Source: a virus (Duplodnaviria; Heunggongvirae; Uroviricota; Caudoviricetes). From it: a DNA stretch of 41,460 nt. The position numbers and the translations under genes were made by a program. The stretch is taken from IMG/VR virus record IMGVR_UViG_2579778753_000003; one strand, written 5' to 3'. This document shows positions 1-40,298 of this stretch, in pieces (within the stretch, counting starts at the first letter, position 1; each line of letters begins with the position of its first letter). Below the pieces are notes generated by a model. It searched no databases. It saw only the letters and a list, made by a program, of their open reading frames with translations, and was not told where the DNA came from.

Positions 1-1005
1 TTAATCCCCCGTGGACACTGCGTGGACACTTACGCCACCTTTCAGCGGATTAAGGGCCACCGCATCCTGCAGGTAATCCGGTGCAAAATGCGCATATGCC
101 ATTGTTTGCTGAATGGTTGCGTGACCAAGAATCTTCTGAAGCGCAATAATGTTTCCTCCGTTCATCACAAAATGGCTGGCGAACGTATGCCGCAGCACAT
201 GTGCAGCCTGGCCTTTTGGTAAATCGGGCTTAACTCTTTTCAGCGCCAGGCAGAATTCCCGGTACTTCACCTCAAACAAGCCGCCTGTTTCTCTGGTTTT
301 GATCGCCTCACAAACTGCCTGCGAAATTGGCACTGTTCTCTTCCGGCCATTTTTGGTTTCAAGAAACGTTACACGGTTATGAACTATCTGTTCACCACGA
401 AGCTTACAAGCTTCACTCCAGCGCGCCCCTGTGCTTAAACACAAAAGCGCAACACGCCAGTAGTCGCCCTCCAGTGTATCGAGCAATAGCGCCACTTCCT
501 TCTGTGACAGGAACGCCATTTCTCGTGGAGATACATAAAGAATAGAAATTCCCCTTACTGGATGTTCTGCATCCCAAAGACCTATTTTTTTCAGCACGGT
601 AAACATTCCGGATAACCGATTCATGTACCTGTTAGCAGATGACGGTTTCAATCCTTCAGCTATCTTTTGAGAACGCCACGCGATAATTTTCAGCTTATCA
701 AGATCCACAGCCTGCATATCAGCGCCAAGCTCATTGATTATGTTGCGCAGTTGTTTTCGGTCTTCTTCCGCCTTACGCCTGTGCTGGCCGTGATACATCC
801 ACCACAACTCAAGCAAATCATTTAGCGTTCGACGATCACGGTAGCCCTGTATATATTCCCGCTTTTCAGCGTTCGCCATGATGTAGCGTTCAGTGGCCAC
901 CGCTACCGATTTTTTGTCAAATACCTTACGCACGCGCTTTCCCTTGCGTCCGTTCGGCCTGATGTCCAGCAAATAACGACCATCTTCGAGCTTCTTAATC
1001 GACAT
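1..1005 (-). CDS. int: Tyrosine integrase, P2 Int-like
   Basis: Begins MSIKKLEDGRYLLDIRPNGRKGKR, with a tyrosine-recombinase C-terminal region (ARWSE...HVLRHTFASHF...GHATIQQTMAYAH); GGAGGG Shine-Dalgarno 9 nt upstream. The ORF track extends to 1020 from an upstream Met. Confidence 0.9.
   Translation of the reverse strand: MSIKKLEDGRYLLDIRPNGRKGKRVRKVFDKKSVAVATERYIMANAEKREYIQGYRDRRTLNDLLELWWMYHGQHRRKAEEDRKQLRNIINELGADMQAVDLDKLKIIAWRSQKIAEGLKPSSANRYMNRLSGMFTVLKKIGLWDAEHPVRGISILYVSPREMAFLSQKEVALLLDTLEGDYWRVALLCLSTGARWSEACKLRGEQIVHNRVTFLETKNGRKRTVPISQAVCEAIKTRETGGLFEVKYREFCLALKRVKPDLPKGQAAHVLRHTFASHFVMNGGNIIALQKILGHATIQQTMAYAHFAPDYLQDAVALNPLKGGVSVHAVSTGD
11..29. repeat. Candidate attL core (left copy of 19-bp direct repeat)
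   Basis: gtggacactgcgtggacac here versus gtggtcactgcgtggacac at 40280-40298 (18/19 identical); flanks diverge on both sides. Lies inside the 3' end of int. Confidence 0.4.
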
Positions 1006-1101
1006 TACGAAGCCCTCCAATGAACCGCTCTACAATTTCTCCAGCCTCTTTCCAGCAATAATCAGACCAGACAAAAAGCAGGTCTAACCAGTTTTCTGGC
1101 C

Positions 1102-1422
1102 TCAGCGGGATAATTTTTGGATTGTTTCGGTTGAAACGCGATCTCCCTCCGAATTGCAGGAACCATCAAGAGAGAGAGCCGGAGAAATTTGCCCGACCTC
1201 CGGCATCGTTTCATCTGTTGATAACCAATAAGCATACTTCTTAAATTTAGGGTGTTTCGTAACCTTAAGTAAGGCACCCTCTGTTACTTGCTTCCCCCTC
1301 ACCTCATAGTTAGTTACCGTCCCATAAGGCAGCCCAACACAATCCGCAAACTCCTGGCGGGTCATACCTTCTGCTTCACGAATCAGGCGAAATTTTTCAC
1401 CCATGCTTGACAAAGATGCCAT
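1102..1422 (-). CDS. C: Immunity repressor, P2 C-like helix-turn-helix protein
   Basis: HTH segment MTRQEFADCVGLPYGTVTNYE and a C-terminal KYAYWLSTDETMPEVGQISPALS resembling P2 C; divergent from cox. Start chosen at the Met with a GGAGGA Shine-Dalgarno; the ORF could extend to 1476. Confidence 0.7.
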   Translation of the reverse strand: MASLSSMGEKFRLIREAEGMTRQEFADCVGLPYGTVTNYEVRGKQVTEGALLKVTKHPKFKKYAYWLSTDETMPEVGQISPALSLDGSCNSEGDRVSTETIQKLSR

Positions 1423-1480
1423 ATCGGGCATATCCTCCATCGCAACATGCCACATCGGGCACAAACATAAAAACACTCAA

Positions 1481-1510
1481 ATAAGCCGATATAAGCCATT
1501 TTGAGCCATT
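1481..1510. promoter_or_regulatory. Candidate repressor operator: three tandem 10-bp direct repeats
   Basis: ataagccgat / ataagccatt / ttgagccatt at an exact 10-bp period in the C-cox switch region, about 25 bp upstream of cox. Confidence 0.4.
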
Positions 1511-1535
1511 CGAACGAATTAGGGAGATTACCACA

Positions 1536-1823
1536 ATGAGCGAATCAGAGCTTGGGGGGTTCATTCAGGTAGCACCATATCCACTTGAAGCGGTGCCATA
1601 TCAACTATTCGCCAAGATGATCGGCCGCAAGGAATCCACAGTCAGAACCATGATTGACGCAGCAAAGCTACCGACAATTGACTTTGTGAAACCAGGTTCA
1701 GTAAAGACGCGTGCATCAGAAAACTGGGTATATCTGCCAGCATTTAACGAAGGCATGCGCAAAGCGTTTTTTGAGCAACCGAAAGAACGCCGCGACGCAT
1801 GGTTGTTGTGGCTGGGACTTTAG
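1536..1823 (+). CDS. cox: Cox-like excisionase / switch regulator
   Basis: PYQLFAKMIGRKESTVRTMIDAAKLPTIDF...NWVYLPAFN...WLLWLGL matches recalled P2 Cox motifs; AGGGAG Shine-Dalgarno. Confidence 0.8.
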   Translation: MSESELGGFIQVAPYPLEAVPYQLFAKMIGRKESTVRTMIDAAKLPTIDFVKPGSVKTRASENWVYLPAFNEGMRKAFFEQPKERRDAWLLWLGL

Positions 1824-1829
1824 TCATAA

Positions 1830-2036
1830 ATGACCAGCCATATCATCAGCGCCATTCTGACCCTTGTTTTTATTGAGATAGGCGTAATAGAGATCTATTT
1901 GTTTCGCAAGTTAACGGGACATGAAGAACGCTTTATTGAACTCAGCATTGAATATATCGCCGCTTATACCAAAGGACTTTTCCCGGCAGCTATTGGGGCG
2001 ATGTTTATAGCGTTTGTTATCTGGTTTATCGGGTGA
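1830..2036 (+). CDS. Small hydrophobic (membrane) protein, unknown function
   Basis: 68-aa ORF with two hydrophobic segments, starting 7 nt after the cox stop. Confidence 0.5.
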   Translation: MTSHIISAILTLVFIEIGVIEIYLFRKLTGHEERFIELSIEYIAAYTKGLFPAAIGAMFIAFVIWFIG

Positions 2037-2075
2037 GAAACCTGACAACCCACAACTACTGCAATGAGGGTAATT

Positions 2076-2183
2076 ATGTGTGGCATGGACAAATTGGACC
2101 TTATGTTAATTGTAATACTATCAATTAACTTCGGTTACCTCTTAAGCGGCGCAATTCTCATGTGCGGAGGCAAACGAAAATGA
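2076..2183 (+). CDS. Small ORF (35 aa), hydrophobic peptide
   Basis: MCGMDKLDLMLIVILSINFGYLLSGAILMCGGKRK, with a GAGGG Shine-Dalgarno; not in the ORF track because it is under 60 aa. Confidence 0.25.
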   Translation: MCGMDKLDLMLIVILSINFGYLLSGAILMCGGKRK

Positions 2184-2287
2184 ACCAGCAGTCCGCAAAA
2201 CGTGAAAACAATGCGATGCGATTTAATCGCAAATATTTTGAGTTCGGCCTCTATGCCGGAATAATTAAATCTGTACAGAGTCTTTAA
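2180..2287 (+). CDS. Small ORF (35 aa)
   Basis: MNQQSAKRENNAMRFNRKYFEFGLYAGIIKSVQSL; GGAGG Shine-Dalgarno; ATGA overlap with the previous ORF, and the next gene starts 1 nt after its stop. Confidence 0.25.
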   Translation: MNQQSAKRENNAMRFNRKYFEFGLYAGIIKSVQSL

Positions 2288-2288
2288 C

Positions 2289-2630
2289 ATGAAACAGCAA
2301 CGTAATTCACGCTTTCGCAATGGTGCAGAACGCCACGCTAACCGTTTTGCTACCAGTGCATCACGCAGCAACATCCGCTACAGCCTGAGTGATACACACG
2401 CAACGCCGGATGGCTACCCAGTAAAACAAATCGGCGAGCATGCCTGGCTGATTGAGAAAGCTGGAATCGTGATCCACAAATGCCCACGCAATCCGTTTAC
2501 CGGAAACCGCATTTTTGCTCTAAGCAGTGGCGACAATCAGTTCGGGCAGGATTTCACATTATACGAAGCACTTCGCACGGTTGATCGTCTGCTTCGCGGG
2601 CAAAGTTTTATTAAACAGGCTGATTTATAA
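2289..2630 (+). CDS. Hypothetical early-operon protein
   Basis: 113-aa ORF in the tightly packed early operon between cox and the replication gene. Confidence 0.55.
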   Translation: MKQQRNSRFRNGAERHANRFATSASRSNIRYSLSDTHATPDGYPVKQIGEHAWLIEKAGIVIHKCPRNPFTGNRIFALSSGDNQFGQDFTLYEALRTVDRLLRGQSFIKQADL

Positions 2631-2640
2631 CAGGTGCTTT

Positions 2641-2928
2641 ATGACCAAAGACCATGCACAAGGTGTATTTATCCGTTTTATTGATTTTCGCGGTGAACTG
2701 TTATTACGTGCATCCGCTATTGACGGAGTGACTCCGGCGGGTAAAAACGGAGCCGACGAAGCCACTTACGTTTATCTGAACGGCACGCGACTGCTTGTGG
2801 AACTTCCGTACCAGACCGTACGAGAAATCATTAGCGAAGCTGAAAAGGCACGCCAGGTTAATGGCGATGAACCCTATATCGAAATTATTTGTATGGATTC
2901 AGAAGCTGAAATACAGAAAGCAGATTAA
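2641..2928 (+). CDS. Hypothetical early-operon protein
   Basis: ATG at 2641 (MTKDHAQGVF...); the longer track ORF from 2527 overlaps the upstream gene. Confidence 0.55.
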   Translation: MTKDHAQGVFIRFIDFRGELLLRASAIDGVTPAGKNGADEATYVYLNGTRLLVELPYQTVREIISEAEKARQVNGDEPYIEIICMDSEAEIQKAD

Positions 2929-2936
2929 AGGGCGTT

Positions 2937-3182
2937 GTGATGGGCAAAGAATATAAAACTCTCATTAACAAAGCACTTGAGCGTTTTTATTTTCGCTTAA
3001 GTGCATCAGGCGCTCATGCTGAACGTGCGGCCCGTGACTCATTGACCAGAGCAATCCGAAGTCTGTATGACGTGGCTTTTTACGCTGATGATCTGGATGC
3101 ACTTAACGAACTTTCCGAGCTGATCTGTGCCGCAGAATGCGGGGAACATATTGAACCGTATAAGCTGGGGAATATCGCATGA
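2937..3182 (+). CDS. Hypothetical early-operon protein
   Basis: 81-aa ORF, co-oriented and tightly spaced. Confidence 0.5.
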   Translation: MMGKEYKTLINKALERFYFRLSASGAHAERAARDSLTRAIRSLYDVAFYADDLDALNELSELICAAECGEHIEPYKLGNIA

Positions 3183-3292
3183 GTATATTTATCTCATGGC
3201 TTGTTCTGATTATTTCGGTGGCCTGCGCTATTGGGATTATGCGAATTATTCATTCAATAAAAAAGATTGAACGCTTTTTCACTGGCGAATAA
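3179..3292 (+). CDS. Small hydrophobic ORF (37 aa)
   Basis: MSIFISWLVLIISVACAIGIMRIIHSIKKIERFFTGE; ATGA overlap with the preceding stop. Confidence 0.3.
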   Translation: MSIFISWLVLIISVACAIGIMRIIHSIKKIERFFTGE

Positions 3293-3378
3293 CAGAGCAA
3301 ATAAAACCACAGATTAAATAAGAAAATGTAAAAACAATCCGCATTCGCGGAGGTATTCGCACACGCCAAGGAGGCGTA

Positions 3379-3582
3379 ATGGCAATTAAGCATTTTCCTG
3401 TCGTTCGTTTTACCTCCAGAGGGCGTGAATACGAAGTCGACGAACGCCTGATTACCACAATCGACAAACACCGTTCAGAAAAGGATGCACATCACATCTA
3501 TCTCACTGACGGCACTTACTTCTGCGCCACGAATGTGGTGCGGGTGAACCTTATCCGACAGGTACAGGAGTCACGCAGATGA
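3379..3582 (+). CDS. Hypothetical early-operon protein
   Basis: 67-aa ORF with GGAGG upstream. Confidence 0.5.
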   Translation: MAIKHFPVVRFTSRGREYEVDERLITTIDKHRSEKDAHHIYLTDGTYFCATNVVRVNLIRQVQESRR

Positions 3583-4120: not shown

Positions 4121-4243
4121 GAAACCAGAACATGCACACACAAAAAAACCGCTTGCCATGCCGCAATCAGTCAGGTTACATTTCCGCTGCACCTCATAAA
4201 ACGGGTGCCGGGATTTCCACCCCGCTGACAACTACAGCGCACA

Positions 4244-4263
4244 ACCGCGCCAGCGGTTTTTTT
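4244..4263 (+). terminator. Possible short intrinsic terminator
   Basis: accgc-gcca-gcggt hairpin followed by a T7 run, about 125 nt after the 3821-4120 gene. Confidence 0.3.
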
Positions 4264-4673: not shown

Positions 4674-4745
4674 TTCCTGTTCCGGGCCTTTCCTGCACCT
4701 TGCGGCGGGAGGCCTTCGCACATCTGTAACAAGAGGATTGCCGCA

Positions 4746-23228: not shown

Positions 23229-25331
23229 ATGAGTACCACAACACGAAAATTTAAAACCGTTATCACCGATACGGGTGCAAAAAAATTAGCTCAGGCAGCC
23301 GCGCCAGATGGTAAGCCTGTCCGCCTGACTCATATGGCCGTGGGCGACGGTGGCGGCACGTTGCCCACACCAGACAGTAAGCAGACCCGTCTGGTGCATG
23401 AGGTGTGGCGACACACTGTTAATCGCGTCATCCTGGACGCAACACATCAGAACCGCATTATTGCGGAGCTGGTTATTCCTCCTGAAACGGGCGGATTCTG
23501 GATCCGGGAAATTGGTGTATTTGATGAGCACGGCGATTTAATCGCGGTGGGCAATACTGCCGAAAGTTACAAACCAACCGTTGCCGAAGGGTCCGGACGT
23601 GCGCAAACATTTCGCACCATTCTGACCGTATCCAGCACTGCCACCGTGGCGCTTACCGTGGATAACACCATGGTGATGGCCACAGTGGATTACGTGGATG
23701 ACAAACTGAAAGAGCATGAACAGTCACGACGTCACCCGGATGCCTCGCTGACCGCAAAAGGCTTTGTTCAACTCAGTAGCGCCACTAACAGCGATTCTGA
23801 AACGCTGGCTGCAACGCCGAAAGCGGTTAAGGCCGCGTATGACCTGGCTAACGGAAAATATACCGCTCAGGACGCCACGACGGCACGAAAAGGGATAGTC
23901 CAGCTCAGCAGTGCAACCAACAGCACGTCTGAAACGCTGGCAGCGACACCAAAAGCGGTTAAGGCGGTAATGGATGAAACGAACAAGAAAGCCCCATTAA
24001 ACAGCCCGGCACTGACCGGAACGCCAACAACACCAACTGCACAACAGGGAACGAATAATACCCAAATCGCAAGCACGGCTTTCGTTATGGCCGCGATTGC
24101 CGCACTTGTAGACTCTTCACCTGACGCACTGAACACGCTGAACGAGCTGGCGGCGGCGCTGGGCAACGACCCGAATTTTGCGACCACCATGACTAACGCG
24201 CTTGCGGGTAAGCAACCGAAAGATGCCACCCTGACGGCGCTGGCCGGGCTTGCTACTGCAGCAGACAGGTTTCCGTATTTTACGGGGAATGATGTTGCCA
24301 GTCTGGCAACCCTGACAGAAGTCGGGCGGGATATTCTTGCGAAATCGACCGTTGCCGCTGTTATCGAATACCTCGGTTTACAGGAAACGGTAAATCAGGC
24401 TTCTGGCGCATTACAGAAAAACCAGAACGGCGCAGATATTCCGGGAAAAGATACCTTCACCAAAAATATTGGGGCCTGCCGCGCATATAGCGCATGGCTG
24501 GATATTGGTGGCGATAGTCAGGTCTGGACAACCGCGCAATTTATTTCGTGGCTGGAGAGTCAGGGAGCATTTAACCATCCTTACTGGATGTGCAAAGGCT
24601 CATGGGCTTATGCAAATAATAAGGTCATTACAGATACAGGTTGCGGAAATATTTGTCTTGCAGGTGCTGTGGTGGAAGTTATTGGCACTCGCGGCGCAAT
24701 GACCATACGCGTTACCACGCCGAGCACGTCCAGCGGTGGCGGAATTACTAACGCTCAATTCACTTATATTAATCATGGTGATGCTTACGCTCCTGGCTGG
24801 CGACGAGACTACAACACGAAAAATCAACAACCTGCATTTGCTTTAGGGCAAACAGGAAGCACTGTCGGAAATGATAAAGCTGTTGGCTGGAACTGGAATA
24901 GCGGGGTCTATAACGCAAACATTGGTGGCGCATCGACATTAATCCTCCACTTCAATATGAATACGGGGAGCTGCCCTGCTGTACAGTTCCGCGTGAATTA
25001 CAGGAACGGCGGTATTTTTTATCGTTCAGCGCGTGATGGTTATGGATTTGAGGCTGACTGGTCAGAGTTTTACACCACGACCCGCAAACCCTCTGCGGGA
25101 GATGTTGGTGCATACACGCAGGCAGAATGTAACTCAAGGTTTATTACAGGTATTCGCCTTGGCGGTCTGTCATCTGTTCAGACATGGAATGGTCCCGGCT
25201 GGTCTGACAGGTCAGGTTATGTCGTTACGGGTTCAGTTAACGGAAACCGTGATGAATTAATTGATACAACTCAGGCAAGGCCAATTCAGTATTGCATTAA
25301 TGGGACGTGGTATAACGCGGGGAGTATTTAA
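23229..25331 (+). CDS. H: Tail fibre protein (gpH-like), constant N-terminus fused to variable C-terminal cassette 1
   Basis: 700 aa with SSATNS.SETLAATPKAVKA repeats; a recombination site at 24361-24386 lies in-frame (encoding [10 protein letters not shown]). Confidence 0.85.
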   Translation: MSTTTRKFKTVITDTGAKKLAQAAAPDGKPVRLTHMAVGDGGGTLPTPDSKQTRLVHEVWRHTVNRVILDATHQNRIIAELVIPPETGGFWIREIGVFDEHGDLIAVGNTAESYKPTVAEGSGRAQTFRTILTVSSTATVALTVDNTMVMATVDYVDDKLKEHEQSRRHPDASLTAKGFVQLSSATNSDSETLAATPKAVKAAYDLANGKYTAQDATTARKGIVQLSSATNSTSETLAATPKAVKAVMDETNKKAPLNSPALTGTPTTPTAQQGTNNTQIASTAFVMAAIAALVDSSPDALNTLNELAAALGNDPNFATTMTNALAGKQPKDATLTALAGLATAADRFPYFTGNDVASLATLTEVGRDILAKSTVAAVIEYLGLQETVNQASGALQKNQNGADIPGKDTFTKNIGACRAYSAWLDIGGDSQVWTTAQFISWLESQGAFNHPYWMCKGSWAYANNKVITDTGCGNICLAGAVVEVIGTRGAMTIRVTTPSTSSGGGITNAQFTYINHGDAYAPGWRRDYNTKNQQPAFALGQTGSTVGNDKAVGWNWNSGVYNANIGGASTLILHFNMNTGSCPAVQFRVNYRNGGIFYRSARDGYGFEADWSEFYTTTRKPSAGDVGAYTQAECNSRFITGIRLGGLSSVQTWNGPGWSDRSGYVVTGSVNGNRDELIDTTQARPIQYCINGTWYNAGSI
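24361..24386. other. Invertase crossover site gixL-like
   Basis: ttatcgaatacc-tc-ggtttacaggaa, matching the recalled Gin/Cin/Pin site (ttatccaaaacc-tc-ggtttacaggaa). Confidence 0.7.
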
Positions 25332-25333
25332 CG

Positions 25334-25867
25334 ATGATGCACTTAAAAAACATTACTGCTGGCAACCCTAAAACAAAAGAGCAATACCAGCTAACGAAAC
25401 AATTTAACATCAAATGGCTTTATTCAGAGAATGGAAAAAACTGGTATGAGGAACAAAAGAATTTCCAGCCAGACACTTTGAAAATGGTCTATGACCATAA
25501 CGGCGTTATTATTTGTATTGAAAAGGATGTTTCAGCAATTAATCCGGAAGGCGCAAGCGTCGTTGAATTACCTGATATTACAGCAAATCGCCGTGCTGAC
25601 ATTTCGGGTAAATGGATGTTCAAAGATGGCGTAGTGGTAAAGCGAACTTATACCGAGGAAGAGCAGAGGCAGCAGGCGGAAAATGAAAAGCAAAGCCTGC
25701 TACAGCTCGTTAGGGATAAAACCCAGCTATGGGACTCACAGCTACGGCTGGGCATCATTTCCGACGAGAATAAACAAAAATTAACCGAGTGGATGCTCTA
25801 TGCGCAGAAAGTCGAATCTACAGACACCTCCAGCCTGCCAGTAACATTTCCCGAACAACCTGAATGA
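25334..25867 (+). CDS. G: Tail fibre assembly protein (gpG-like), partner of cassette 1
   Basis: 177 aa immediately after the tail fibre gene. Confidence 0.85.
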   Translation: MMHLKNITAGNPKTKEQYQLTKQFNIKWLYSENGKNWYEEQKNFQPDTLKMVYDHNGVIICIEKDVSAINPEGASVVELPDITANRRADISGKWMFKDGVVVKRTYTEEEQRQQAENEKQSLLQLVRDKTQLWDSQLRLGIISDENKQKLTEWMLYAQKVESTDTSSLPVTFPEQPE

Positions 25868-25895
25868 GACAAGGCCCGATAGCGGGCCTTAATTT

Positions 25896-26423
25896 TTATT
25901 CAGGCTTTTGTGGCCATTCAGGATTTGCCGTATCCACACGGCTGACCAGAACACTGTAGCGTTCCCATGCTTCCAGTCGTGTGCGTTCCTCGTCTGTTGC
26001 CATATTCAGCCTGACAGCGCGTTCCAGCGGCTGGATGACTGATTCAGCTTCGGAAAGCAATGCGGCCTTTTGTGATTCGGCTTGTTGTTGCTGTTCGTCT
26101 GCCGTATAAATCCGTTTAACTACAGCTCCATCCTTAAACATCCACTTTCCTGAATCATCAGCGCGGCGGTTGGCTGTAATATCTGGAACCTCAACGACGC
26201 TAAAACCTTCAGGGTTAAGCGTGGAGGCATCTTTAGTGATGGCGACAATAATATTATTTGCATCGTAAACAATCTTTATTGTGTCTGGCTGAAAGTTTTT
26301 CACTTCCTCATACCAGTTTTTTCCGTCCTCAGAGTAAAGCCAGATAACTCCGTGTTTCTTTGTTAACTCATACTGTTCCAGTGTTTTAGCGTTACCCGCT
26401 TTTATGTTCTTTAAGTGCATCAT
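25896..26423 (-). CDS. Alternative tail fibre assembly protein, partner of cassette 2
   Basis: 175 aa, about 50% identical to the gpG-like protein (MMHLKNI.AGN.KT.EQY.LTK...), inverted orientation. Confidence 0.8.
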
Positions 26424-26424
26424 A

Positions 26425-27449
26425 TTAAACGCTCGCTACATTATACCAGGTGCCATTTATATACTTTTGAACGGGTCTGTAATAAACGCCCGCTATATTA
26501 TCGGCAGAGTTGGACCCTGTATCCTGAACATTAATACCAGACAATACATGACCTGACGGGCACTGGAAATTCCATGTTTGCCAGTTGTTCACTCTATAAT
26601 ATTGCTGTGAACCAAGTCGAACATCTTTCACATATCTGGAATCAAAATTGCCATAGTTGCCGGGAATAACTTGCGCACCGCAAAGCCAGTTTCCGTTATT
26701 ATCCATGTACGCCTGACCATCGGTGCCATTGGCTGTCCTTGAATTATTAATCATGTAGATGCCAAATTGCTTATTTCCCAGACCGCCAATCATAAATTTG
26801 CGGTCGGCATGGTCCTGACGGAGCAAAGCCTGAGCACCATCAGTGGATACCGCATTACGTCCCATAATAACGTTCTGGTCACGCATATGAATCCACATGC
26901 CTGTACTGCTGTTAATTAAAAAACGGTTTGCAAATATATCTCCTGTAACATCCAGACCATGCCCCATAGTTATGCGACCAGTTCTGAGATTAAGCGTAAA
27001 GGGGCGTAGTGGCCCTATATCGCCATTTTCCCCCTCATTTTCTCGGGTAGGGATGATATGAAGACATTCTTCAGAACGGCGAAAAATAGCACCAAAAGAT
27101 GAATTAAATATCCTCAGTGCATTGACTGTCGATATTTTTACTTCACTGCTGAAAAGGGCTTTAACAAGAACAGACAAAGCATCCCATTTAAGATTCATCA
27201 GGTCTTTTGTTGTGGTGCTTTGTTTGCTTCTCCATTTGAAATATTCATTGCCGTTGTCGCCTGTTTCAAACCACATGTATGAATCAGTATCGCTGTCGGC
27301 ATCATTTTTAAAACCAATCTTTGCCCAGTCAGTATTCCGAATCCAGGCAAGGATTGAGTCGTTTTCAAAAGTAAGCCCACCGGACAAGATATCGCCTGTC
27401 TTTTGGACGGCGTTACCAGCCTTGTTTACCGTTTCCTGTAAACCGAGGT
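26425..27449 (-). CDS. Alternative tail fibre C-terminal cassette 2 (promoterless in this orientation)
   Basis: Frame is open from the centre through ...[30 protein letters not shown]...; no ATG start; would fuse to the constant tail-fibre N-terminus after inversion. Confidence 0.7.
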
Positions 27450-27450
27450 A

Positions 27451-28475
27451 ACCTCGGTTTACAGGAAACGGTAAACAAGGCTGGTAACGCCGTCCAAAAG
27501 ACAGGCGATATCTTGTCCGGTGGGCTTACTTTTGAAAACGACTCAATCCTTGCCTGGATTCGGAATACTGACTGGGCAAAGATTGGTTTTAAAAATGATG
27601 CCGACAGCGATACTGATTCATACATGTGGTTTGAAACAGGCGACAACGGCAATGAATATTTCAAATGGAGAAGCAAACAAAGCACCACAACAAAAGACCT
27701 GATGAATCTTAAATGGGATGCTTTGTCTGTTCTTGTTAAAGCCCTTTTCAGCAGTGAAGTAAAAATATCGACAGTCAATGCACTGAGGATATTTAATTCA
27801 TCTTTTGGTGCTATTTTTCGCCGTTCTGAAGAATGTCTTCATATCATCCCTACCCGAGAAAATGAGGGGGAAAATGGCGATATAGGGCCACTACGCCCCT
27901 TTACGCTTAATCTCAGAACTGGTCGCATAACTATGGGGCATGGTCTGGATGTTACAGGAGATATATTTGCAAACCGTTTTTTAATTAACAGCAGTACAGG
28001 CATGTGGATTCATATGCGTGACCAGAACGTTATTATGGGACGTAATGCGGTATCCACTGATGGTGCTCAGGCTTTGCTCCGTCAGGACCATGCCGACCGC
28101 AAATTTATGATTGGCGGTCTGGGAAATAAGCAATTTGGCATCTACATGATTAATAATTCAAGGACAGCCAATGGCACCGATGGTCAGGCGTACATGGATA
28201 ATAACGGAAACTGGCTTTGCGGTGCGCAAGTTATTCCCGGCAACTATGGCAATTTTGATTCCAGATATGTGAAAGATGTTCGACTTGGTTCACAGCAATA
28301 TTATAGAGTGAACAACTGGCAAACATGGAATTTCCAGTGCCCGTCAGGTCATGTATTGTCTGGTATTAATGTTCAGGATACAGGGTCCAACTCTGCCGAT
28401 AATATAGCGGGCGTTTATTACAGACCCGTTCAAAAGTATATAAATGGCACCTGGTATAATGTAGCGAGCGTTTAA
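27451..28475 (+). CDS. Duplicate (mirror) copy of cassette 2
   Basis: Identical translation to 26425-27387 on the opposite strand. Confidence 0.65.
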
Positions 28476-28476
28476 T

Positions 28477-29004
28477 ATGATGCACTTAAAGAACATAAAA
28501 GCGGGTAACGCTAAAACACTGGAACAGTATGAGTTAACAAAGAAACACGGAGTTATCTGGCTTTACTCTGAGGACGGAAAAAACTGGTATGAGGAAGTGA
28601 AAAACTTTCAGCCAGACACAATAAAGATTGTTTACGATGCAAATAATATTATTGTCGCCATCACTAAAGATGCCTCCACGCTTAACCCTGAAGGTTTTAG
28701 CGTCGTTGAGGTTCCAGATATTACAGCCAACCGCCGCGCTGATGATTCAGGAAAGTGGATGTTTAAGGATGGAGCTGTAGTTAAACGGATTTATACGGCA
28801 GACGAACAGCAACAACAAGCCGAATCACAAAAGGCCGCATTGCTTTCCGAAGCTGAATCAGTCATCCAGCCGCTGGAACGCGCTGTCAGGCTGAATATGG
28901 CAACAGACGAGGAACGCACACGACTGGAAGCATGGGAACGCTACAGTGTTCTGGTCAGCCGTGTGGATACGGCAAATCCTGAATGGCCACAAAAGCCTGA
29001 ATAA
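28477..29004 (+). CDS. Duplicate (mirror) copy of the alternative tail fibre assembly gene
   Basis: Identical translation to 25896-26423 on the opposite strand. Confidence 0.7.
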
Positions 29005-29032
29005 AAATTAAGGCCCGCTATCGGGCCTTGTC

Positions 29033-29566
29033 TCATTCAGGTTGTTCGGGAAATGTTACTGGCAGGCTGGAGGTGTCTGTAGATTCGACTTTCTGCGCAT
29101 AGAGCATCCACTCGGTTAATTTTTGTTTATTCTCGTCGGAAATGATGCCCAGCCGTAGCTGTGAGTCCCATAGCTGGGTTTTATCCCTAACGAGCTGTAG
29201 CAGGCTTTGCTTTTCATTTTCCGCCTGCTGCCTCTGCTCTTCCTCGGTATAAGTTCGCTTTACCACTACGCCATCTTTGAACATCCATTTACCCGAAATG
29301 TCAGCACGGCGATTTGCTGTAATATCAGGTAATTCAACGACGCTTGCGCCTTCCGGATTAATTGCTGAAACATCCTTTTCAATACAAATAATAACGCCGT
29401 TATGGTCATAGACCATTTTCAAAGTGTCTGGCTGGAAATTCTTTTGTTCCTCATACCAGTTTTTTCCATTCTCTGAATAAAGCCATTTGATGTTAAATTG
29501 TTTCGTTAGCTGGTATTGCTCTTTTGTTTTAGGGTTGCCAGCAGTAATGTTTTTTAAGTGCATCAT
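29033..29566 (-). CDS. Duplicate (mirror) copy of the gpG-like tail fibre assembly gene
   Basis: Identical translation to 25334-25867 on the opposite strand. Confidence 0.7.
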   Translation of the reverse strand: MMHLKNITAGNPKTKEQYQLTKQFNIKWLYSENGKNWYEEQKNFQPDTLKMVYDHNGVIICIEKDVSAINPEGASVVELPDITANRRADISGKWMFKDGVVVKRTYTEEEQRQQAENEKQSLLQLVRDKTQLWDSQLRLGIISDENKQKLTEWMLYAQKVESTDTSSLPVTFPEQPE

Positions 29567-29568
29567 CG

Positions 29569-30508
29569 TTAAATACTCCCCGCGTTATACCACGTCCCAT
29601 TAATGCAATACTGAATTGGCCTTGCCTGAGTTGTATCAATTAATTCATCACGGTTTCCGTTAACTGAACCCGTAACGACATAACCTGACCTGTCAGACCA
29701 GCCGGGACCATTCCATGTCTGAACAGATGACAGACCGCCAAGGCGAATACCTGTAATAAACCTTGAGTTACATTCTGCCTGCGTGTATGCACCAACATCT
29801 CCCGCAGAGGGTTTGCGGGTCGTGGTGTAAAACTCTGACCAGTCAGCCTCAAATCCATAACCATCACGCGCTGAACGATAAAAAATACCGCCGTTCCTGT
29901 AATTCACGCGGAACTGTACAGCAGGGCAGCTCCCCGTATTCATATTGAAGTGGAGGATTAATGTCGATGCGCCACCAATGTTTGCGTTATAGACCCCGCT
30001 ATTCCAGTTCCAGCCAACAGCTTTATCATTTCCGACAGTGCTTCCTGTTTGCCCTAAAGCAAATGCAGGTTGTTGATTTTTCGTGTTGTAGTCTCGTCGC
30101 CAGCCAGGAGCGTAAGCATCACCATGATTAATATAAGTGAATTGAGCGTTAGTAATTCCGCCACCGCTGGACGTGCTCGGCGTGGTAACGCGTATGGTCA
30201 TTGCGCCGCGAGTGCCAATAACTTCCACCACAGCACCTGCAAGACAAATATTTCCGCAACCTGTATCTGTAATGACCTTATTATTTGCATAAGCCCATGA
30301 GCCTTTGCACATCCAGTAAGGATGGTTAAATGCTCCCTGACTCTCCAGCCACGAAATAAATTGCGCGGTTGTCCAGACCTGACTATCGCCACCAATATCC
30401 AGCCATGCGCTATATGCGCGGCAGGCCCCAATATTTTTGGTGAAGGTATCTTTTCCCGGAATATCTGCGCCGTTCTGGTTTTTCTGTAATGCGCCAGAAG
30501 CCTGATTT
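29569..30508 (-). CDS. Duplicate (mirror) copy of cassette 1 (promoterless)
   Basis: Translation identical to the tail-fibre C-terminus; frame is open up to the gixR-like site. Confidence 0.65.
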
Positions 30509-30513
30509 ACCGT

Positions 30514-30539
30514 TTCCTGTAAACCGAGGTTTTAGATAA
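30514..30539. other. Invertase crossover site gixR-like
   Basis: ttcctgtaaacc-ga-ggttttagataa; mirror of the left site with two outer-arm mismatches; 37 bp upstream of the invertase gene. Confidence 0.7.
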
Positions 30540-30575: not shown

Positions 30576-31181
30576 TTGGACGGGAGATTCAGCGTGCTGA
30601 TTGGCTATGTAAGGGTATCAACAAATGACCAGAATACAGACCTGCAACGAAACGCTCTTGTTTGTGCAGGATGTGAACAAATATTTGAAGATAAATTAAG
30701 CGGGACAAAGACAGACCGACCGGGATTAAAACGCGCTTTAAAGCGCCTTCAAAAAGGTGACACGCTGGTTGTCTGGAAACTGGATCGCCTCGGGCGAAGC
30801 ATGAAACATCTGATTTCTCTCGTCGGGGAACTACGGGAGCGAGGAATTAATTTTCGCAGTCTGACCGACAGCATAGATACATCTTCTCCAATGGGGCGTT
30901 TTTTCTTCCACGTGATGGGTGCCCTGGCTGAAATGGAACGTGAATTAATTGTTGAACGTACACTGGCCGGACTGGCGGCAGCACGCGCACGGGGGCGCAC
31001 AGGCGGACGTCGACCGAAGCTGACAAAAGAACAGCATGAGCAAATAGCAAGGCTGATCAAAAACGGGCACGACAGAAAACAACTGGCAATAATTTACGGC
31101 ATTGGTATATCGACGATTTATCGTTACCACCCCGCAGGAGAATCAATCGGAACAATAGAGAAGAGTCAGGAAACAAAATAA
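30576..31181 (+). CDS. Serine DNA invertase (Gin/Cin/Pin/Hin family)
   Basis: LIGYVRVSTNDQNTDLQRNAL...DTLVVWKLDRLGRSMKHLI... with a C-terminal helix-turn-helix (GISTIYRY); an alternative GTG start at 30594 gives the canonical N-terminus. Confidence 0.9.
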   Translation: MDGRFSVLIGYVRVSTNDQNTDLQRNALVCAGCEQIFEDKLSGTKTDRPGLKRALKRLQKGDTLVVWKLDRLGRSMKHLISLVGELRERGINFRSLTDSIDTSSPMGRFFFHVMGALAEMERELIVERTLAGLAAARARGRTGGRRPKLTKEQHEQIARLIKNGHDRKQLAIIYGIGISTIYRYHPAGESIGTIEKSQETK

Positions 31182-35618: not shown

Positions 35619-36802
35619 CAGGCACCTCCCAGCACCGCAAATGCGGGACCAAAGAATTCATCAGTAAACGTCTGGTAAAGCTCCATGTCTTCCAGCGGGG
35701 GAACAGGCGTATATTTGTAGCGAATACGCACACGTCCCTGACGTAAATTCGTGGTGCCGTTATCCACCACGTCATACCAGCACTCCGCACCAATCAGTTT
35801 CCCGGCAGTAACCAGCGAATCCAGTTTTGCCCTGATGGCGCTGATAACATCCTTCACGTTCGCAGGTGTCAGTGGACTGTCGATGGTTTCAAACTGCGCT
35901 TCCGCAATTGAATCAGCCAGCACCTGTGCGGTTCGGGTATACACCTCAAAGATGTAGGCGTTCGTTTCCGGTGTGCGGTTGCCCCAGAAGCGGAACCCGT
36001 TGCGACGAATAATGGTCGTGATTTCTTTGTTGTTGAGGCTGTTGGCATCGCTGTCTTCGGCCTGCAACGACCAGAACACATGCCTGGACATTCCCAGCAC
36101 ATTTTTAACCGGAACGTTGGACAGCGATTTGTGCCAGCCCTGCTCATGGTCAATGTACGCACGAAGGCCGCACGCATAAGCAGGCGCGGGGAACGTTTCG
36201 TTTTTGCCACTTTTCGGGTTGTAGGCGATGAAGTCCGGCCATAAGAGCATCACCTCACGTTCGTTGAATTTCTGGCGGTAGGTAATCGCCTCAGCCATCG
36301 TGTTACAGCCGTGACATGAGGCATACACAAACGCGCGCAGTTTACCTGCAATCACGCACAGGGATTTTGTTACAGCCTCCGTGTCCAGCTCCGGCGCGGC
36401 CAGAATACGCGGACGGTATCCGATGCTTTCATCCTGCTCTGCAACAAGCAGCGCATACATCCCCGTATAGCTGCCGTCATCCTCAGAACCACCGATAACC
36501 AGTTGATCCTGCGTCTTTCCGTCTTCTTCTTTGTGTTCAGCCACGCGAACGACGATCACCTTTGTGCTCACCTGGTCTGCGATGGCCTTAAGCGCACGAT
36601 AAAGCGTCCCCGTTGTCCCGCATTTTCCCAGCACGTCATTGACGCGGGTCAGCAGTGTGGGCTTATTCAGCGGGAACAGCTTCGCGTCCGCATCATCCGC
36701 CGTTGCCACGATACCGATAACGCTGGAATCAACATCGTTAATCGCTGTTACCAGGTCGGTATTTTCCGTAACACGGGCACCATGAAAACGAGTTTCACTC
36801 AT
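35618..36802 (-). CDS. FI: Tail sheath protein (P2 gpFI-like)
   Basis: 394 aa; first gene of the sheath-tube-chaperone-tape measure-gpU block. Confidence 0.9.
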   Translation of the reverse strand: MSETRFHGARVTENTDLVTAINDVDSSVIGIVATADDADAKLFPLNKPTLLTRVNDVLGKCGTTGTLYRALKAIADQVSTKVIVVRVAEHKEEDGKTQDQLVIGGSEDDGSYTGMYALLVAEQDESIGYRPRILAAPELDTEAVTKSLCVIAGKLRAFVYASCHGCNTMAEAITYRQKFNEREVMLLWPDFIAYNPKSGKNETFPAPAYACGLRAYIDHEQGWHKSLSNVPVKNVLGMSRHVFWSLQAEDSDANSLNNKEITTIIRRNGFRFWGNRTPETNAYIFEVYTRTAQVLADSIAEAQFETIDSPLTPANVKDVISAIRAKLDSLVTAGKLIGAECWYDVVDNGTTNLRQGRVRIRYKYTPVPPLEDMELYQTFTDEFFGPAFAVLGGA

Positions 36803-36959
36803 AGCTTCAGCCCCTTGTATCCGTTAAATGATTCGGCAACAATCATCACCCACCACGCGCGTAATCTCACCCCTGCGCCGTTCTCCCGACCCGGCGACAA
36901 CAAAAAGCAGTACCCCCCTCCGCACGCACATGCGACCATGCCGCACAGGGAGGGAACAG

Positions 36960-38069
36960 ATGACCGACACCACCATGCAATTGCTCAGTCAGGGCACGGC
37001 CCCCGTGAAAATGCCGGATTTTGATATTCTCTCGGAGGGTAAAACGCTGTCAGGCGTGGCGGAGCGCCTGATGAGCCTGTCACTGACCGACAACCGGGGA
37101 TTTGAGGCGGACCAGCTCACCATCACGCTGGATGATGCGGATGGTCAGTTGCAGCTACCGCCACGGGGCGCGCGCCTGACGGTTCTCATTGGCTGGAAAG
37201 GAGAACCGCTGACAGAAAAAGGCACTTACATTGTTGATGAAGTCGCTCACGAAGGACCGCCGGACAGGCTGACTGTTTCAGCCAGAAGCGCAGATTTTCG
37301 GGATGAATTTAACGTTAAACGTGAGGTGTCCTGGCATGATGTGACCGTTGAGCGTGTGGTATCCGCCATCGCTCATCGGTATGGTCTGAAACCACAAATC
37401 AGCGAAATGCTGATGGATATCGAAATCGACCACGCCGACCAGACCGAAGAAAGCGACATGTCCTTCCTTACGCGCATGGCGGAAATGCTGGGCGCAATCA
37501 CCACGGTAAAAAGCGGCAATCTGTTATTCATCATGCCAGGTGGTGGCGTGAACGCACAGGGCCAGCCGTTGCCCTCGTTCGCCATTACACGCAGCAGCGG
37601 CGATCGCCATCAGTTCCGTATTGCTGACCGCGAGGCGTATACGGGGGTACGCGCCTACTGGCTTGATCTTAATTACGGGAAAAAGAAAAAAGTCAGCGTG
37701 AAACGCCGCAAACCACCAAAACCCCAAAAGGAGAAAAGCAGCAGCCGTGAAGGTGATTATATGGAAGGCGCGGAAGGCAATGTGTTTGTGTTACGCAAGA
37801 CCTATCAGAACGAACAGGCAGCAAGACGCGCAGCGGCGGCAAAGTGGCAGCAACTACAACGCGGAGCCGCATCATTCTCCATCACGCTGGCGCGTGGACG
37901 TGCAGAACTCTACCCCGAAATGCATGGTACGGTAACAGGATTTAAAAGCGAGATTGATAATCAGGACTGGATCATTGCAAAAGCCGAGCACACTATTGAT
38001 AACAGCGGCTTTACCACGCAGCTTGAGCTTGAGGCAAAAATCCCGGAATGGATAGCGGAAACAGAGTGA
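36960..38069 (+). CDS. D: Tail protein / late control protein D (P2 gpD-like)
   Basis: ATG at 36960 with AGGGAGGG upstream (the track ORF from 36828 has no Shine-Dalgarno); about 369 aa. Confidence 0.8.
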   Translation: MTDTTMQLLSQGTAPVKMPDFDILSEGKTLSGVAERLMSLSLTDNRGFEADQLTITLDDADGQLQLPPRGARLTVLIGWKGEPLTEKGTYIVDEVAHEGPPDRLTVSARSADFRDEFNVKREVSWHDVTVERVVSAIAHRYGLKPQISEMLMDIEIDHADQTEESDMSFLTRMAEMLGAITTVKSGNLLFIMPGGGVNAQGQPLPSFAITRSSGDRHQFRIADREAYTGVRAYWLDLNYGKKKKVSVKRRKPPKPQKEKSSSREGDYMEGAEGNVFVLRKTYQNEQAARRAAAAKWQQLQRGAASFSITLARGRAELYPEMHGTVTGFKSEIDNQDWIIAKAEHTIDNSGFTTQLELEAKIPEWIAETE

Positions 38070-38111
38070 GCAACTTAGAATAGCGGCAGCACCACGTTAA
38101 GGGAGGTCGCT

Positions 38112-38372
38112 ATGTTCCGTTGTCCGCTTTGTGGCGCATCTGCCCGTATCCGCACCAGTCGTCCGGAAAATGATTCAAACACCGTGCGGCAAAAGTATTA
38201 CCAGTGTAACAATCTGGAATGCGGCGTATGCTTCTCAACACTGGAAGCCTTCCATAAATTCACATCAAAACACGCCTCCGGCGTTCACTCTTCAGAAGGT
38301 ATCCCGTGGCATGAGCTGCCAGCTTCACACAGGGGAAACAATCAGATGAGTTTGCCTTTACCTCAGAATTAA
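38112..38372 (+). CDS. ogr: Late-gene transcription activator, Ogr/Delta zinc-finger family
   Basis: MFRCPLCGASARIRTSR...KYYQCNNLECGVCFST: a C4 zinc finger as in recalled P2 Ogr (MFHCPLC...YHQCQNVNCSATF). Confidence 0.85.
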   Translation: MFRCPLCGASARIRTSRPENDSNTVRQKYYQCNNLECGVCFSTLEAFHKFTSKHASGVHSSEGIPWHELPASHRGNNQMSLPLPQN

Positions 38373-38562
38373 CAGGCAGAATTGCCGGAGTAACAAAAAA
38401 GCGATAGATTACGCGCGGGTGCCTTTCGGCTGATGGTCGGAGGGAATACCCGATGGCCGGATGTGGAAAGGCCCCGGAAAACACTTTTGTTTAACCGAGG
38501 CCCTAACCGTCTACCCTAAGCAAGTGATAGGTTAGCGCCTCCCCGAAAAAGGAGCAAGCGCT

Positions 38563-38703
38563 ATGTCGCAAAAATCGCTTACGGCCATCACGTTCTGCGT
38601 GACGGTAATCCTCATCATCTGGATGCTGCACGGTTCGCTGTGTGAAATACGGATGAGCTTCTGGGGAGCGGAGTTTGCGGCGTTCTTACAGTGTAAGCAG
38701 TAA
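38563..38703 (+). CDS. Hok/Gef-family type I toxin (putative)
   Basis: 46 aa: MSQKSLTAITFCVTVILIIWMLHGSLCEIRMSFWGAEFAAFLQCKQ; membrane helix plus SLCEIR and E.AAF as in Hok (SLCEIR...EVAAFMAYE); AGGAG Shine-Dalgarno; GC-rich hairpin at 38712-38733 downstream. Confidence 0.65.
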   Translation: MSQKSLTAITFCVTVILIIWMLHGSLCEIRMSFWGAEFAAFLQCKQ

Positions 38704-38965
38704 GGAAACCGCGACGGGGGAGTAATCCCCCGTCAATCGGTTGCTAGGGTAAGGTCGATAAGGCACCCTATCTCACAGCTCTAAATGCAAAAATTCCATG
38801 AAACTGTGGGATTTTTGCATCACATACTGATACAGACCAGCCCTTCTATATGCCTCACTCTATACCAGCTAATCAATTGACACTTATCAATAAAAATAAA
38901 TCTGATAAAATCAAAATGTTTTGTAACAAATATCAACTCGTATTAATCCAAAGGAGGCGGATTAC

Positions 38966-39298
38966 ATGGCATTAATCAAATGTCCTGAATGCCAGAAAGA
39001 GGTGAGCGATTCAGCATTGTATTGCCCTGCTTGTGGTAAACAACTGCAAAAACTTAAGCGTTCATTTTTTGGACGGATCATTAAGTGGGTTTTTATATTA
39101 TTTAATATTTTTATGATCTATACGCTTTTAGTTGGACTAGGAGGCACTAGTGAAATAATAAATAATGCCACATCCGATGCCGAAAAAGCCGGTGCAGTTA
39201 TTGGTACAGGCTTAGGTTTAATTACCATTGGAAGCTTATGGGTTATTGGCGATATCATTATCGGAATTTTAGTATTTCTTACTAAACCAAAGGGATAA
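38966..39298 (+). CDS. Zinc-ribbon membrane protein, unknown function
   Basis: 110 aa; CPEC...CPAC zinc ribbon followed by two hydrophobic helices; AGGAGG Shine-Dalgarno; AT-rich. Confidence 0.6.
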   Translation: MALIKCPECQKEVSDSALYCPACGKQLQKLKRSFFGRIIKWVFILFNIFMIYTLLVGLGGTSEIINNATSDAEKAGAVIGTGLGLITIGSLWVIGDIIIGILVFLTKPKG

Positions 39299-39302
39299 TA
39301 AA

Positions 39303-40196
39303 ATGAAAAATATAATTTTTTCTATAGGTGCATCATTTATATCAATTAGTGTACTGCCTGTTCACGCAGCAACTGAACATAAGAACTTCAATGCAGTACT
39401 CCAGTGCCGAGCAATAGAAAATAATAAAGACAGACTTTCTTGTTACGATAAGTCAATACAACCGACTCGAACGAAAGTTGCTGAAAAATTCGAAAGCAGA
39501 GATCAATGCCCTGATGAGAAAGATGATGATAGACGTTTATCTTGTTATGATCGTTTCTTTTCTCCAACATTTACTCCATCTGTAAACTCAAAATCTAAAA
39601 CGGAAAAGCCAGTAACAACAGAGGCTCAGCAACCAAATCTTTCTGAGATATCTAAATGTCGTGCAGAAAATGATAAAGAAGCCAGACTAAACTGCTACGA
39701 TAAACTATTCCCACAGGATAAAATCGTTCAAGCTGAATCAAAATTAGAGAAAGCCACAGATGTAGGAAAATGGCACACATCCATTACTACATCGCCAATT
39801 GATGATTCGAAAAATGTAATTTTATCGTTAGAAAGTGATGATTATATCAGAACTCCATTTGGAGAAGCGGTTACTCCTACTCTTTTTATAGCTTGCCGAG
39901 AAAAGAAAACCGAAGTATTTCTTAGTTGGGATGTATATTTAGGCCTTGAACAAACCAGCATGCTTTATCGCCTTGATAAACAGAAAGCAGTTGAGCGAAA
40001 CTGGCTAGTATCTACAGATACAAAGGCTGTTTTTTATAAAGGTAATGACATTGATTTCATCCGAAAACTAGCCAACTCAAGCAAAATGTATACAAAAATA
40101 ACGCCTTATAATGAGAGCCCCGTAAGTGCAACTTTCAATTTAAACGGCCTGTCAAACGCGCTAAAACCGCTTCAAGCTGCTTGTAACTGGAAATAG
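39303..40196 (+). CDS. Secreted protein with three cysteine-pair repeats, unknown function
   Basis: 297 aa; signal peptide (cleavage after VHA), three copies of a C-x8/9-RL-x-CYD-K/R motif, then a roughly 150-aa C-terminal domain; AT-rich. Confidence 0.65.
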   Translation: MKNIIFSIGASFISISVLPVHAATEHKNFNAVLQCRAIENNKDRLSCYDKSIQPTRTKVAEKFESRDQCPDEKDDDRRLSCYDRFFSPTFTPSVNSKSKTEKPVTTEAQQPNLSEISKCRAENDKEARLNCYDKLFPQDKIVQAESKLEKATDVGKWHTSITTSPIDDSKNVILSLESDDYIRTPFGEAVTPTLFIACREKKTEVFLSWDVYLGLEQTSMLYRLDKQKAVERNWLVSTDTKAVFYKGNDIDFIRKLANSSKMYTKITPYNESPVSATFNLNGLSNALKPLQAACNWK

Positions 40197-40279
40197 TATT
40201 AAATCATGTGGCTTAGCCACAATCACAGATAACACAAAGCCCGTGAAAACGGGCTTTGTGTTATCTGTAACTCGAAAAT

Positions 40280-40298
40280 GTGGTCACTGCGTGGACAC
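40280..40298. repeat. Candidate attR core (right copy of 19-bp direct repeat)
   Basis: gtggtcactgcgtggacac versus 11-29 (18/19 identical); sits at the transition from AT-rich cargo to the host flk region. Confidence 0.4.

Follow-up and report, generated by a model that had tools for sequence, protein, structure and literature searches.

In phage lambda, attP contains arm-type sites (P1, P2 and P′1–P′3) that differ from the core in sequence; the N-terminal domain of the integrase (Int) binds them, and IHF bends allow them to be bridged to the core. After integration, these sites are split between attL and attR. In phage P2, the genome record (NC_001895; features 24293–24496) annotates an Int P arm, an IHF site, a core, a Cox site and an Int P′ arm, and the last of these ('protein_bind Int, P′ arm', 24470–24496) lies inside the P2 int CDS. 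The published arm consensus of the P2 type is tgTGGaCa, which is tied to the N-terminal domain of P2-type Int (PMC3448106). PhiSM, a Citrobacter rodentium phage, was shown experimentally to use a 17-bp integration site at the 5′ end of the K-12 pdxB gene (Magaziner et al. 2019, PMC6456863). According to the part of that paper used here, a PhiSM TTG codon with AAGGAG reads into pdxB and restores it, and the lysogens grew on minimal medium; the same part reports a 17-bp core (20 bp in our analysis) and makes no mention of arm-type sites.

We analysed a stretch of viral DNA of 41,460 nucleotides (IMG/VR record IMGVR_UViG_2579778753_000003), referred to below as the window. Judging from sequence comparisons, two 19-bp direct repeats in this DNA are very probably the arm-type sites of a heterobivalent Int, encoded by a P2-like prophage (Xuanwuvirus, PhiSM/P88-type) in the 5′ end of pdxB. 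One direct GTGG(A/T)CAC pair would belong to the P arm and one to the P′ arm of attP (Table 1). The initial annotation had read the repeats as the attL and attR crossover cores, an interpretation that is partly supported: the repeats are real and are part of the attachment-site machinery near both prophage ends, but the crossover maps elsewhere.

Table 1 Attachment-site, regulatory and cargo features of the window
Feature	Coordinates	Strand	Basis
int, P2-type tyrosine integrase, 334 aa	1–1005	−	Pfam Int_N 3.4e-23, Phage_integrase 9.9e-23
P′ arm-type Int-binding site pair (putative)	11–29	+	GTGGACACTGCGTGGACAC, 0 mismatches; GTGGACAC twice in direct orientation, starts 11 bp apart
C-type immunity repressor (HTH)	1102–1422	−	weak Pfam HTH_3, below curated cut-off
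cox, excision directionality factor and Pc repressor, Cox family	1536–1823	+	Pfam Phage_Cox 1.3e-22
ogr	38112–38372		Pfam Ogr_Delta
Cargo segment	38563–40196	+	between ogr and attP P arm
Hok/Gef toxin	38563–38703	+	Pfam HOK_GEF
Zinc-ribbon membrane protein	38966–39298	+	Pfam Zn_Ribbon_1
VasI/TagO-like protein	39303–40196	+	Pfam VasI
20-bp-stem perfect hairpin, putative bidirectional terminator	40225–40268	.	folding
P arm-type Int-binding site pair (putative)	40280–40298	+	GTGGTCACTGCGTGGACAC, 1 mismatch against left copy; GTGGTCAC then GTGGACAC, 11 bp apart
IHF-site-like AT-rich block (putative)	40303–40336	+	between P arm pair and core
attR copy of crossover core TTTTCATCAACAAGGATTTT	40344–40363	.	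K-12 attB vs 99-3165 attL vs window
Orphaned native pdxB 5′ end, GTG start 40364–40366 and 7 codons	40344–40366	−	K-12 comparison

The two 19-mers are identical at 18 of 19 positions and are embedded in unrelated flanking DNA. They form the sole such pair in the window, with no other match to the 19-mer at up to three mismatches, and none of 100 dinucleotide-preserving shuffles of the window contained a match; in these respects the initial annotation, which had judged the pair to be beyond chance, was correct. It had also described the repeat as an internal tandem of GTGGACAC, and indeed each copy is made up of two 8-mers (GTGGACAC or GTGGTCAC) spaced 11 bp start-to-start. The heptamer GTGG[AT]CA occurs 14 times on the two strands of the window, and in tandem only within the two 19-mers. 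Compared with tgTGGaCa, the unit pairs are cGTGGACAc/cGTGGACAc in the left copy and tGTGGTCAc/cGTGGACAc in the right copy, all on the plus strand, so that at least two direct repeats of the consensus are found on each side of the core. As had also been noted, the left copy is situated within the 3′ end of the integrase gene (stop at 1–3; protein C-terminus ...SVHAVSTGD*), where it encodes ...SVHAVST... in the last codons. It is extremely improbable that the similarity arose by chance or that the repeats are a relic without function, a view for which only the short unit length speaks: the shuffles gave no match, and P2, P88_4B11, Chuche and PhiSM all keep the tandem, with its place and its sequence.

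The assignment of the repeats to Int is based on their near-identity in sequence and position to the annotated sites of P2. The P′ 19-mer is identical at 18 of 19 positions to GTGGACACTGTGTGGACAC within the P2 P′ arm feature, and both phages have it at an offset of 10 nt from the int stop. On the other side, the P2 site annotated as 'protein_bind Int, P arm' (ATGTGGTCAaTGtGTGGAC) aligns with ATGTGGTCAcTGcGTGGAC in the window (similarity ATGTGGTCA.TG.GTGGAC), and P2 as well as all the relatives compared have GTGGTCA as the first P arm unit. A short distance left of the P arm site, the hairpin (folding energy of −35.4 kcal/mol on the plus strand and −38.7 kcal/mol on the minus strand) takes the place that the rho-independent terminator at 24265–24288 has in P2, directly before the P arm starting at 24293. 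To the right of the P arm pair, ATCAATAAATTA at 40321–40332 fits the consensus ATCAANNNNTTR, and a conserved block, ATAAATCCTTTTA..TCAA...ATT, is shared with the P2 'protein_bind IHF' region (24324–24357). The protein itself shows a corresponding pattern. The Int of the window is 50% identical to P2 Int overall, but the identity amounts to 30/45 over the first 45 residues, consistent with a P2-type N-terminal arm-binding domain, and to 7/24 over the next 24. A conserved N-terminus followed by a diverged core-binding stretch fits conserved arms combined with a different core. The positions of the repressor gene and cox match those of P2 C and cox, respectively; the repressor gene is named 'helix-turn-helix protein' in the RefSeq annotation of strain 99-3165 and 'C protein' in the PhiSM record.

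The repeats might alternatively be bound not by Int but by another phage regulator such as Cox or the C repressor, or be conserved only because the left copy encodes the conserved Int C-terminus SVH(A/T)VST. Cox-family proteins too bind direct repeats in att arms about one helical turn apart, and protein constraint could explain part of the conservation of the coding left copy. However, the non-coding right copy is equally conserved between P2 and the window phage while its surroundings diverge, and the P2 record gives both sites to Int and has a separate Cox site in the stretch from the core to the P′ arm. The link between the arm consensus and the P2-type Int N-terminal domain also argues against another regulator. 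We therefore consider this explanation very unlikely, and the Int arm-site assignment is retained below.

Taking the 19-mers as attL/attR core duplications has an evident appeal: a highly significant direct repeat occurs near both prophage ends, and the window stops short of the real attL, so that nothing else is visible on the left. One copy should then occupy the empty site upstream of flk, as the initial annotation had expected. In K-12, the 4.1-kb empty locus (usg-pdxB-flk-yfcJ) contained no match to the 19-mer with up to three mismatches. A base-by-base comparison of attL, attR and attB identified a single common stretch, the 20-bp TTTTCATCAACAAGGATTTT, which in attB is carried by codons 1–8 of pdxB. 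At the right junction, empty-site genomes match the window only from 40344 rightwards, not from 40299; at the left junction, they match attL only as far as the core edge. The complete attL junction was present in 303 of 5426 E. coli genomes, the others stopping at the core edge. Since the attL core falls outside the window, its position, 183–202 bp left of the window start, was inferred from genomes with 100% identity to window positions 1–1100, strain 99-3165 serving as the comparator. The homology breakpoints are thus displaced from the 19-mers, by 45 bp on the right and by 192 bp on the left, which is the outcome (junctions mapping elsewhere) that the initial annotation had itself named as contrary to its reading. 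Host homology breaks at the core in the first pdxB codons, and the prophage is inserted in the 5′ end of pdxB and not in the intergenic region upstream of flk. The suggestion that the integrase C-terminal codons overlap the att core holds for the overlap only, the overlapped element being an arm-type Int site as in P2.

Phage genomes provide a second line of evidence. In P88_4B11 and Chuche, the predicted junction of P arm, core, P′ arm and int is found as one piece, and in the circular PhiSM genome both 19-mers are identical to the window copies and flank the core. All three phages carry two 19-mers, about 270 bp apart, where a core duplication would leave a single copy after excision; the P′ 19-mer is invariant in P88_4B11 and PhiSM and has one change in Chuche. 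Empty sites lack both the 45 bp at 40299–40343 and the approximately 190 bp left of the window, which the phage genomes contain as contiguous sequence. The pairs therefore lie in phage-derived arms around a distinct core shared with attB. Moreover, P2 has the same repeats with a core (AAAAAATAAGCCCGTGTAAGGGAGATT) and an attB that are both unrelated to those of the window phage, and TTTTCATCAACAAGGATTTT contains the reverse complement of ATCCTTGTTGATGAAAA, the 17-mer to which the PhiSM att site was mapped experimentally (PMC6456863). The empty-site and attP comparisons refute core duplication, and we return to the arm-type reading. Escherichia phage 500465-2 (NC_049343) was considered as a divergent attP comparator and rejected, since this record is a predicted prophage extending into the host genes flk and yfcJ; it shares the P arm and the core but not the P′ arm and is uninformative on attP. 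The prophage in the exact-match genome CRE1540 is shorter than the window.

The initial annotation was right in assigning the right-end cargo, a hok-like gene and two further genes, to the prophage. To the right of the cargo comes the attR core, and the same 297-aa cargo gene stands directly upstream of attP in P88_4B11 and PhiSM, ending in the latter directly upstream of the P arm. The annotation of P88_4B11 likewise has the same cargo genes between ogr and attP. Elsewhere in the window, the centre junction of a 6-kb palindrome (24370–30530) was not found in any complete E. coli genome searched.

The arm-type reading suggests the following course of integration. The 19-mers are phage DNA without a part in strand exchange, which occurs within the separate 20-bp core common to phage and pdxB attB. 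By analogy with P2 and lambda, the conserved N-terminal domain of Int may occupy the arm repeats, and its core-binding and catalytic domains may act on the core; IHF may bend the P arm at the AT-rich block, allowing Int to bridge arm and core in an intasome, and Cox bound to the long P′ arm may direct recombination towards excision. Once the phage has integrated, the P pair remains with attR, 45 bp left of its core, and the P′ pair with attL. Split in this way between attL and attR, the arm pairs enclose the prophage and look like att duplications.

The insertion affects the host gene. The K-12 pdxB CDS boundary corresponds to position 40366, and the native pdxB promoter region stays at attR with the orphaned 5′ end, while the remainder of the gene, fused to phage DNA, is situated to the left of the window. 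The core-adjacent P′ arm probably supplies a Shine-Dalgarno sequence (AAGGAG) and an in-frame TTG that replace the start lost on integration, giving M-SETEKGL-KILVDENMP...; in the lysogen 99-3165, RefSeq pdxB is shortened to 370 aa. In the 400 bp around attL, we found one marginal promoter-like match (TTGTCA-17-AAAAAT, 9/12), which is no better than those in shuffles and overlaps the TTG start itself. No intrinsic terminators were found in the 400 bp around attL, including the interval from the int stop to pdxB. These two observations raise the speculative and rather doubtful idea that transcription reading through from the prophage immunity operon (Pc-C-int), and not a promoter of its own in the P′ arm, accounts for most pdxB expression in lysogens. 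If so, this transcription would run across the Int arm sites at the 3′ end of int and the Cox region downstream, and Int or Cox occupancy could couple host B6 supply to the lysis-lysogeny state of the prophage, as pdxB is needed for vitamin B6 synthesis.

Conserved arm-type integrase sites near prophage ends can thus pass for att duplications. In the present case, such a mistake would misplace the boundaries by 45 bp on the right and by about 190 bp on the left, and would miss both the insertion in pdxB and the rebuilding of its 5′ end. Correct boundaries matter for the annotation of pdxB in the approximately 5.6% of complete E. coli genomes with the insertion.

The attP of the window phage has an ordinary P2-type architecture, which is already known; P2-type arm sites, the pdxB attB and the phage-supplied TTG start have all been published previously. 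The integrase and the mapped core place the prophage among the pdxB-integrating PhiSM/P88-type (Xuanwuvirus) elements. Its Int is identical to that of PhiSM (genome OR565851, Xuanwuvirus) at 329 of 334 residues, and the 19-mers, the core and the P′-arm AAGGAG/TTG segment are identical in the two phages, whereas the window prophage differs from PhiSM/P88-type phages elsewhere, for example in the tail-fibre region. In P2 and the window phage alike, a terminator (putative in the latter) comes first, then the P arm pair, the IHF block (IHF-site-like in the latter), the core, a long P′ arm and finally the P′ pair within the int 3′ end, with approximately 41–45 bp between the P arm pair and the core. 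Both encode a directionality factor of the Cox family, and conservation extends to the N-terminal domain of Int. However, the distance from the core to the P′ arm pair is 192 bp here and 89 bp in P2, and the intasome geometry may differ. The P′ arm, about 100 bp longer than that of P2, carries the replacement pdxB Shine-Dalgarno sequence and start, and cargo is inserted between ogr and the P arm, unlike in P2. Lambda follows the same arm and core logic with a different sequence, number and arrangement of arm sites, and its arm sites, unlike the P′ pair of the window phage, do not overlap the int coding sequence.

The 19-bp direct repeats that the initial annotation had proposed as attL and attR are real: the left copy (GTGGACACTGCGTGGACAC) and the right copy (GTGGTCACTGCGTGGACAC) are identical at 18 of 19 positions, and a search of the window allowing up to three mismatches gave no further match. 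None of 100 dinucleotide-preserving shuffles contained a match, placing the repeats far beyond chance. The description of the repeat as a tandem of GTGGACAC was also borne out: each copy contains two 8-bp units, the second starting 11 bp after the first. The motif GTGG[AT]CA occurs 14 times in the window (both strands), in tandem only at the two 19-mers. The left copy lies inside the final codons of the integrase gene (int).

As attL/attR cores, the 19-mers were refuted because the excision junctions map elsewhere, the outcome that the initial annotation had itself named as refuting; the 19-mer is also absent from the 4.1-kb empty locus of K-12. Every one of the 5426 complete E. coli genomes contains the right flank (flk); in nearly all of them the match extends only from window position 40344 rightwards. 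This breakpoint lies 45 bp right of the right 19-mer and falls, in K-12, within pdxB, 23 bp from the gene's 5′ end; pdxB is oriented divergently from flk. On the left, strain 99-3165, which is 100% identical to window 1-1100, has about 200 bp of additional non-host DNA separating pdxB from the integrase stop (window position 1). When attB (K-12), attL (99-3165) and attR (window) were compared base by base, exactly 20 bases proved common to all three, TTTTCATCAACAAGGATTTT, which define the core. The whole pdxB-core-P′ arm-int junction was present in 303 of the 5426 genomes, the others matching only as far as the core edge. The annotated placement of the cargo genes inside the prophage holds.

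Coordinates of features in the window, in the attL locus of strain 99-3165 (L003) and in the curated P2 reference record
Feature	Position	Strand	Remark
int	1-1005	-	stop at 1-3; protein ends ...SVHAVSTGD
Left 19-mer	11-29	+	
Right 19-mer	40280-40298	+	
attL core copy	L003:2799-2818		183-202 bp left of window start; three-way att comparison
attR core copy	40344-40363		three-way att comparison
Hairpin	40225-40268		perfect; 20-bp stem
Hok/Gef toxin	within 38563-40196		cargo; 46 aa
Zinc-ribbon membrane protein	within 38563-40196		cargo; 110 aa
VasI-domain protein (type VI secretion-associated, "TagO")	within 38563-40196		cargo; 297 aa
Inverted duplication arms	24361-27449 / 27451-30539		centre 27450; perfect part ~24370-30530
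Outer-end site TTCCTGTAAACCGAGGTTTTAGATAA	30514-30539		inverted copy at 24361-24386
Gin/Cin-type serine invertase gene	30576-31181		Resolvase+HTH_7; adjoins palindrome
P2 terminator			first in P2 order, before Int P arm
P2 Int, P arm	24293-24320		
P2 IHF	24324-24357		
P2 attP core	24356-24383		
P2 Cox	24399-24472		
P2 Int, P′ arm	24470-24496		inside int CDS
P2 int CDS	24462-25475	-	

The predicted excised junction was assembled from window 40101-40343, the core, about 190 bp from outside the window and the int 3′ end, and searched against phage genomes. It was contiguous in Xuanwuvirus P88_4B11 (100% coverage, 94% identity), and phage Chuche matched 77% of it, spanning the core. The excised phage thus has both 19-mers, separated by about 270 bp with one core between them, which is the opposite of what core duplication predicts. 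The P88_4B11 core (L005:2728-2750) reads TTTTCCTCAACAAGGATTTT, with one mismatch (A to C) against the core of the window, Chuche, PhiSM and E. coli attB; depending on the crossover point, this could give a heteroduplex or an altered pdxB codon 6 after integration. In the circular PhiSM record, 8 bp (ACAAGGAT) are apparently repeated across the start/end join (L010:1-20, L009:1-12), which falls within the att core; this is probably a linearisation overlap of the deposited record. NC_049343 ("Escherichia phage 500465-2", a RefSeq "complete phage genome") extends rightwards past the attR core into host flk and yfcJ, which marks it as a prophage prediction whose boundary was set too far out, not as an excised genome.

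Insertion splits pdxB after codon 8. The attR side keeps the native GTG start, seven more codons and the promoter region (window 40344-40366, minus strand). At attL, AAGGAG, followed after a 7-nt spacer by an in-frame TTG, comes from the phage P′ arm (L003:2799-2860). Translation from this TTG would yield M-SETEKGL-KILVDENMP...; RefSeq shortens pdxB of 99-3165 to 370 aa, from Met9. A promoter and terminator scan gave no terminator between int and pdxB and one marginal promoter match only; in lysogens, pdxB transcription may come from a dedicated promoter or from Pc-C-int read-through. In K-12, Magaziner et al. (2019, PMC6456863) mapped PhiSM attachment to a 17-bp site, ATCCTTGTTGATGAAAA, whose reverse complement forms the first 17 bp of the present core; they also described the TTG and SD for pdxB and showed growth of PhiSM lysogens on minimal medium. 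The split and the phage-supplied start are already published for PhiSM.

Between ogr and the attP P arm the prophage carries its low-GC cargo. In a related prophage of strain 23AR0998 at the same pdxB site, Com and a DNA methyltransferase stand instead between hok and the P arm, and Chuche carries the same pair in the cargo position; given this variation, the position behaves as an exchangeable moron slot.

The tail-fibre region contains two essentially perfect inverted copies of about 3.09 kb each, 1 nt apart. The resulting ~6.2-kb palindrome takes in the 3′ portion of the tail-fibre gene as well as the alternative fibre and assembly cassettes, and accounts for the roughly 3 kb by which the prophage exceeds its relatives in length. 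Its outer ends are gix/cix-like sites; at its centre, two copies of one inner half-site meet, a junction found in none of the 5426 complete E. coli genomes. The palindrome is probably an artefact, of fold-back or of assembly, arising at an invertible tail-fibre segment; it may also be a real inverted duplication.

By analogy with P2 and lambda, the Int N-terminal domain would bind the arm pairs, leaving the 20-bp core to the core-binding and catalytic domains of Int. IHF would bend the P arm at 40303-40336, a putative block with a match to ATCAANNNNTTR at 40321, and Cox, acting in the long P′ arm, would favour excision. Integration would cut attP at the core; attR would retain the P pair and attL the P′ pair, so that the two bracket the prophage.

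The P2 P′ arm, GTGGACACTGTGTGGACAC, is identical to window 11-29 at 18 of 19 positions, and in both phages it begins 10 nt from the int stop codon, counted from the codon's first base. The P arm reads ATGTGGTCAATGTGTGGAC in P2 and ATGTGGTCACTGCGTGGAC in the window. The lone mismatch between the 19-mers (GTGGTCA versus GTGGACA) is conserved too: P2 likewise has GTGGTCA as its first P-arm unit. In a four-way attP alignment, the blocks that P2 shares with this phage group are both arm pairs plus the IHF-footprint block ATAAATCCTTTTA..TCAA...ATT; their cores are unrelated. The hairpin is the positional counterpart of the P2 terminator preceding the P arm. The window Int is 50% identical to P2 Int overall, with 30/45 identities in residues 1-45 but 7/24 in the next 24, a pattern that fits retained arm recognition and changed core specificity; PhiSM Int differs little from it (329/334 identical). 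The window also encodes the rest of the P2-type module: a Cox-family protein, an Ogr protein and an HTH repressor. P2-type arms follow the consensus tgTGGaCa, recognised by the Int N-terminal domain (Nilsson et al., PMC3448106). By sequence and position, the 19-mers are the usual, well-studied arm sites of a P2-type attP, in a prophage family whose pdxB attachment site has already been described.
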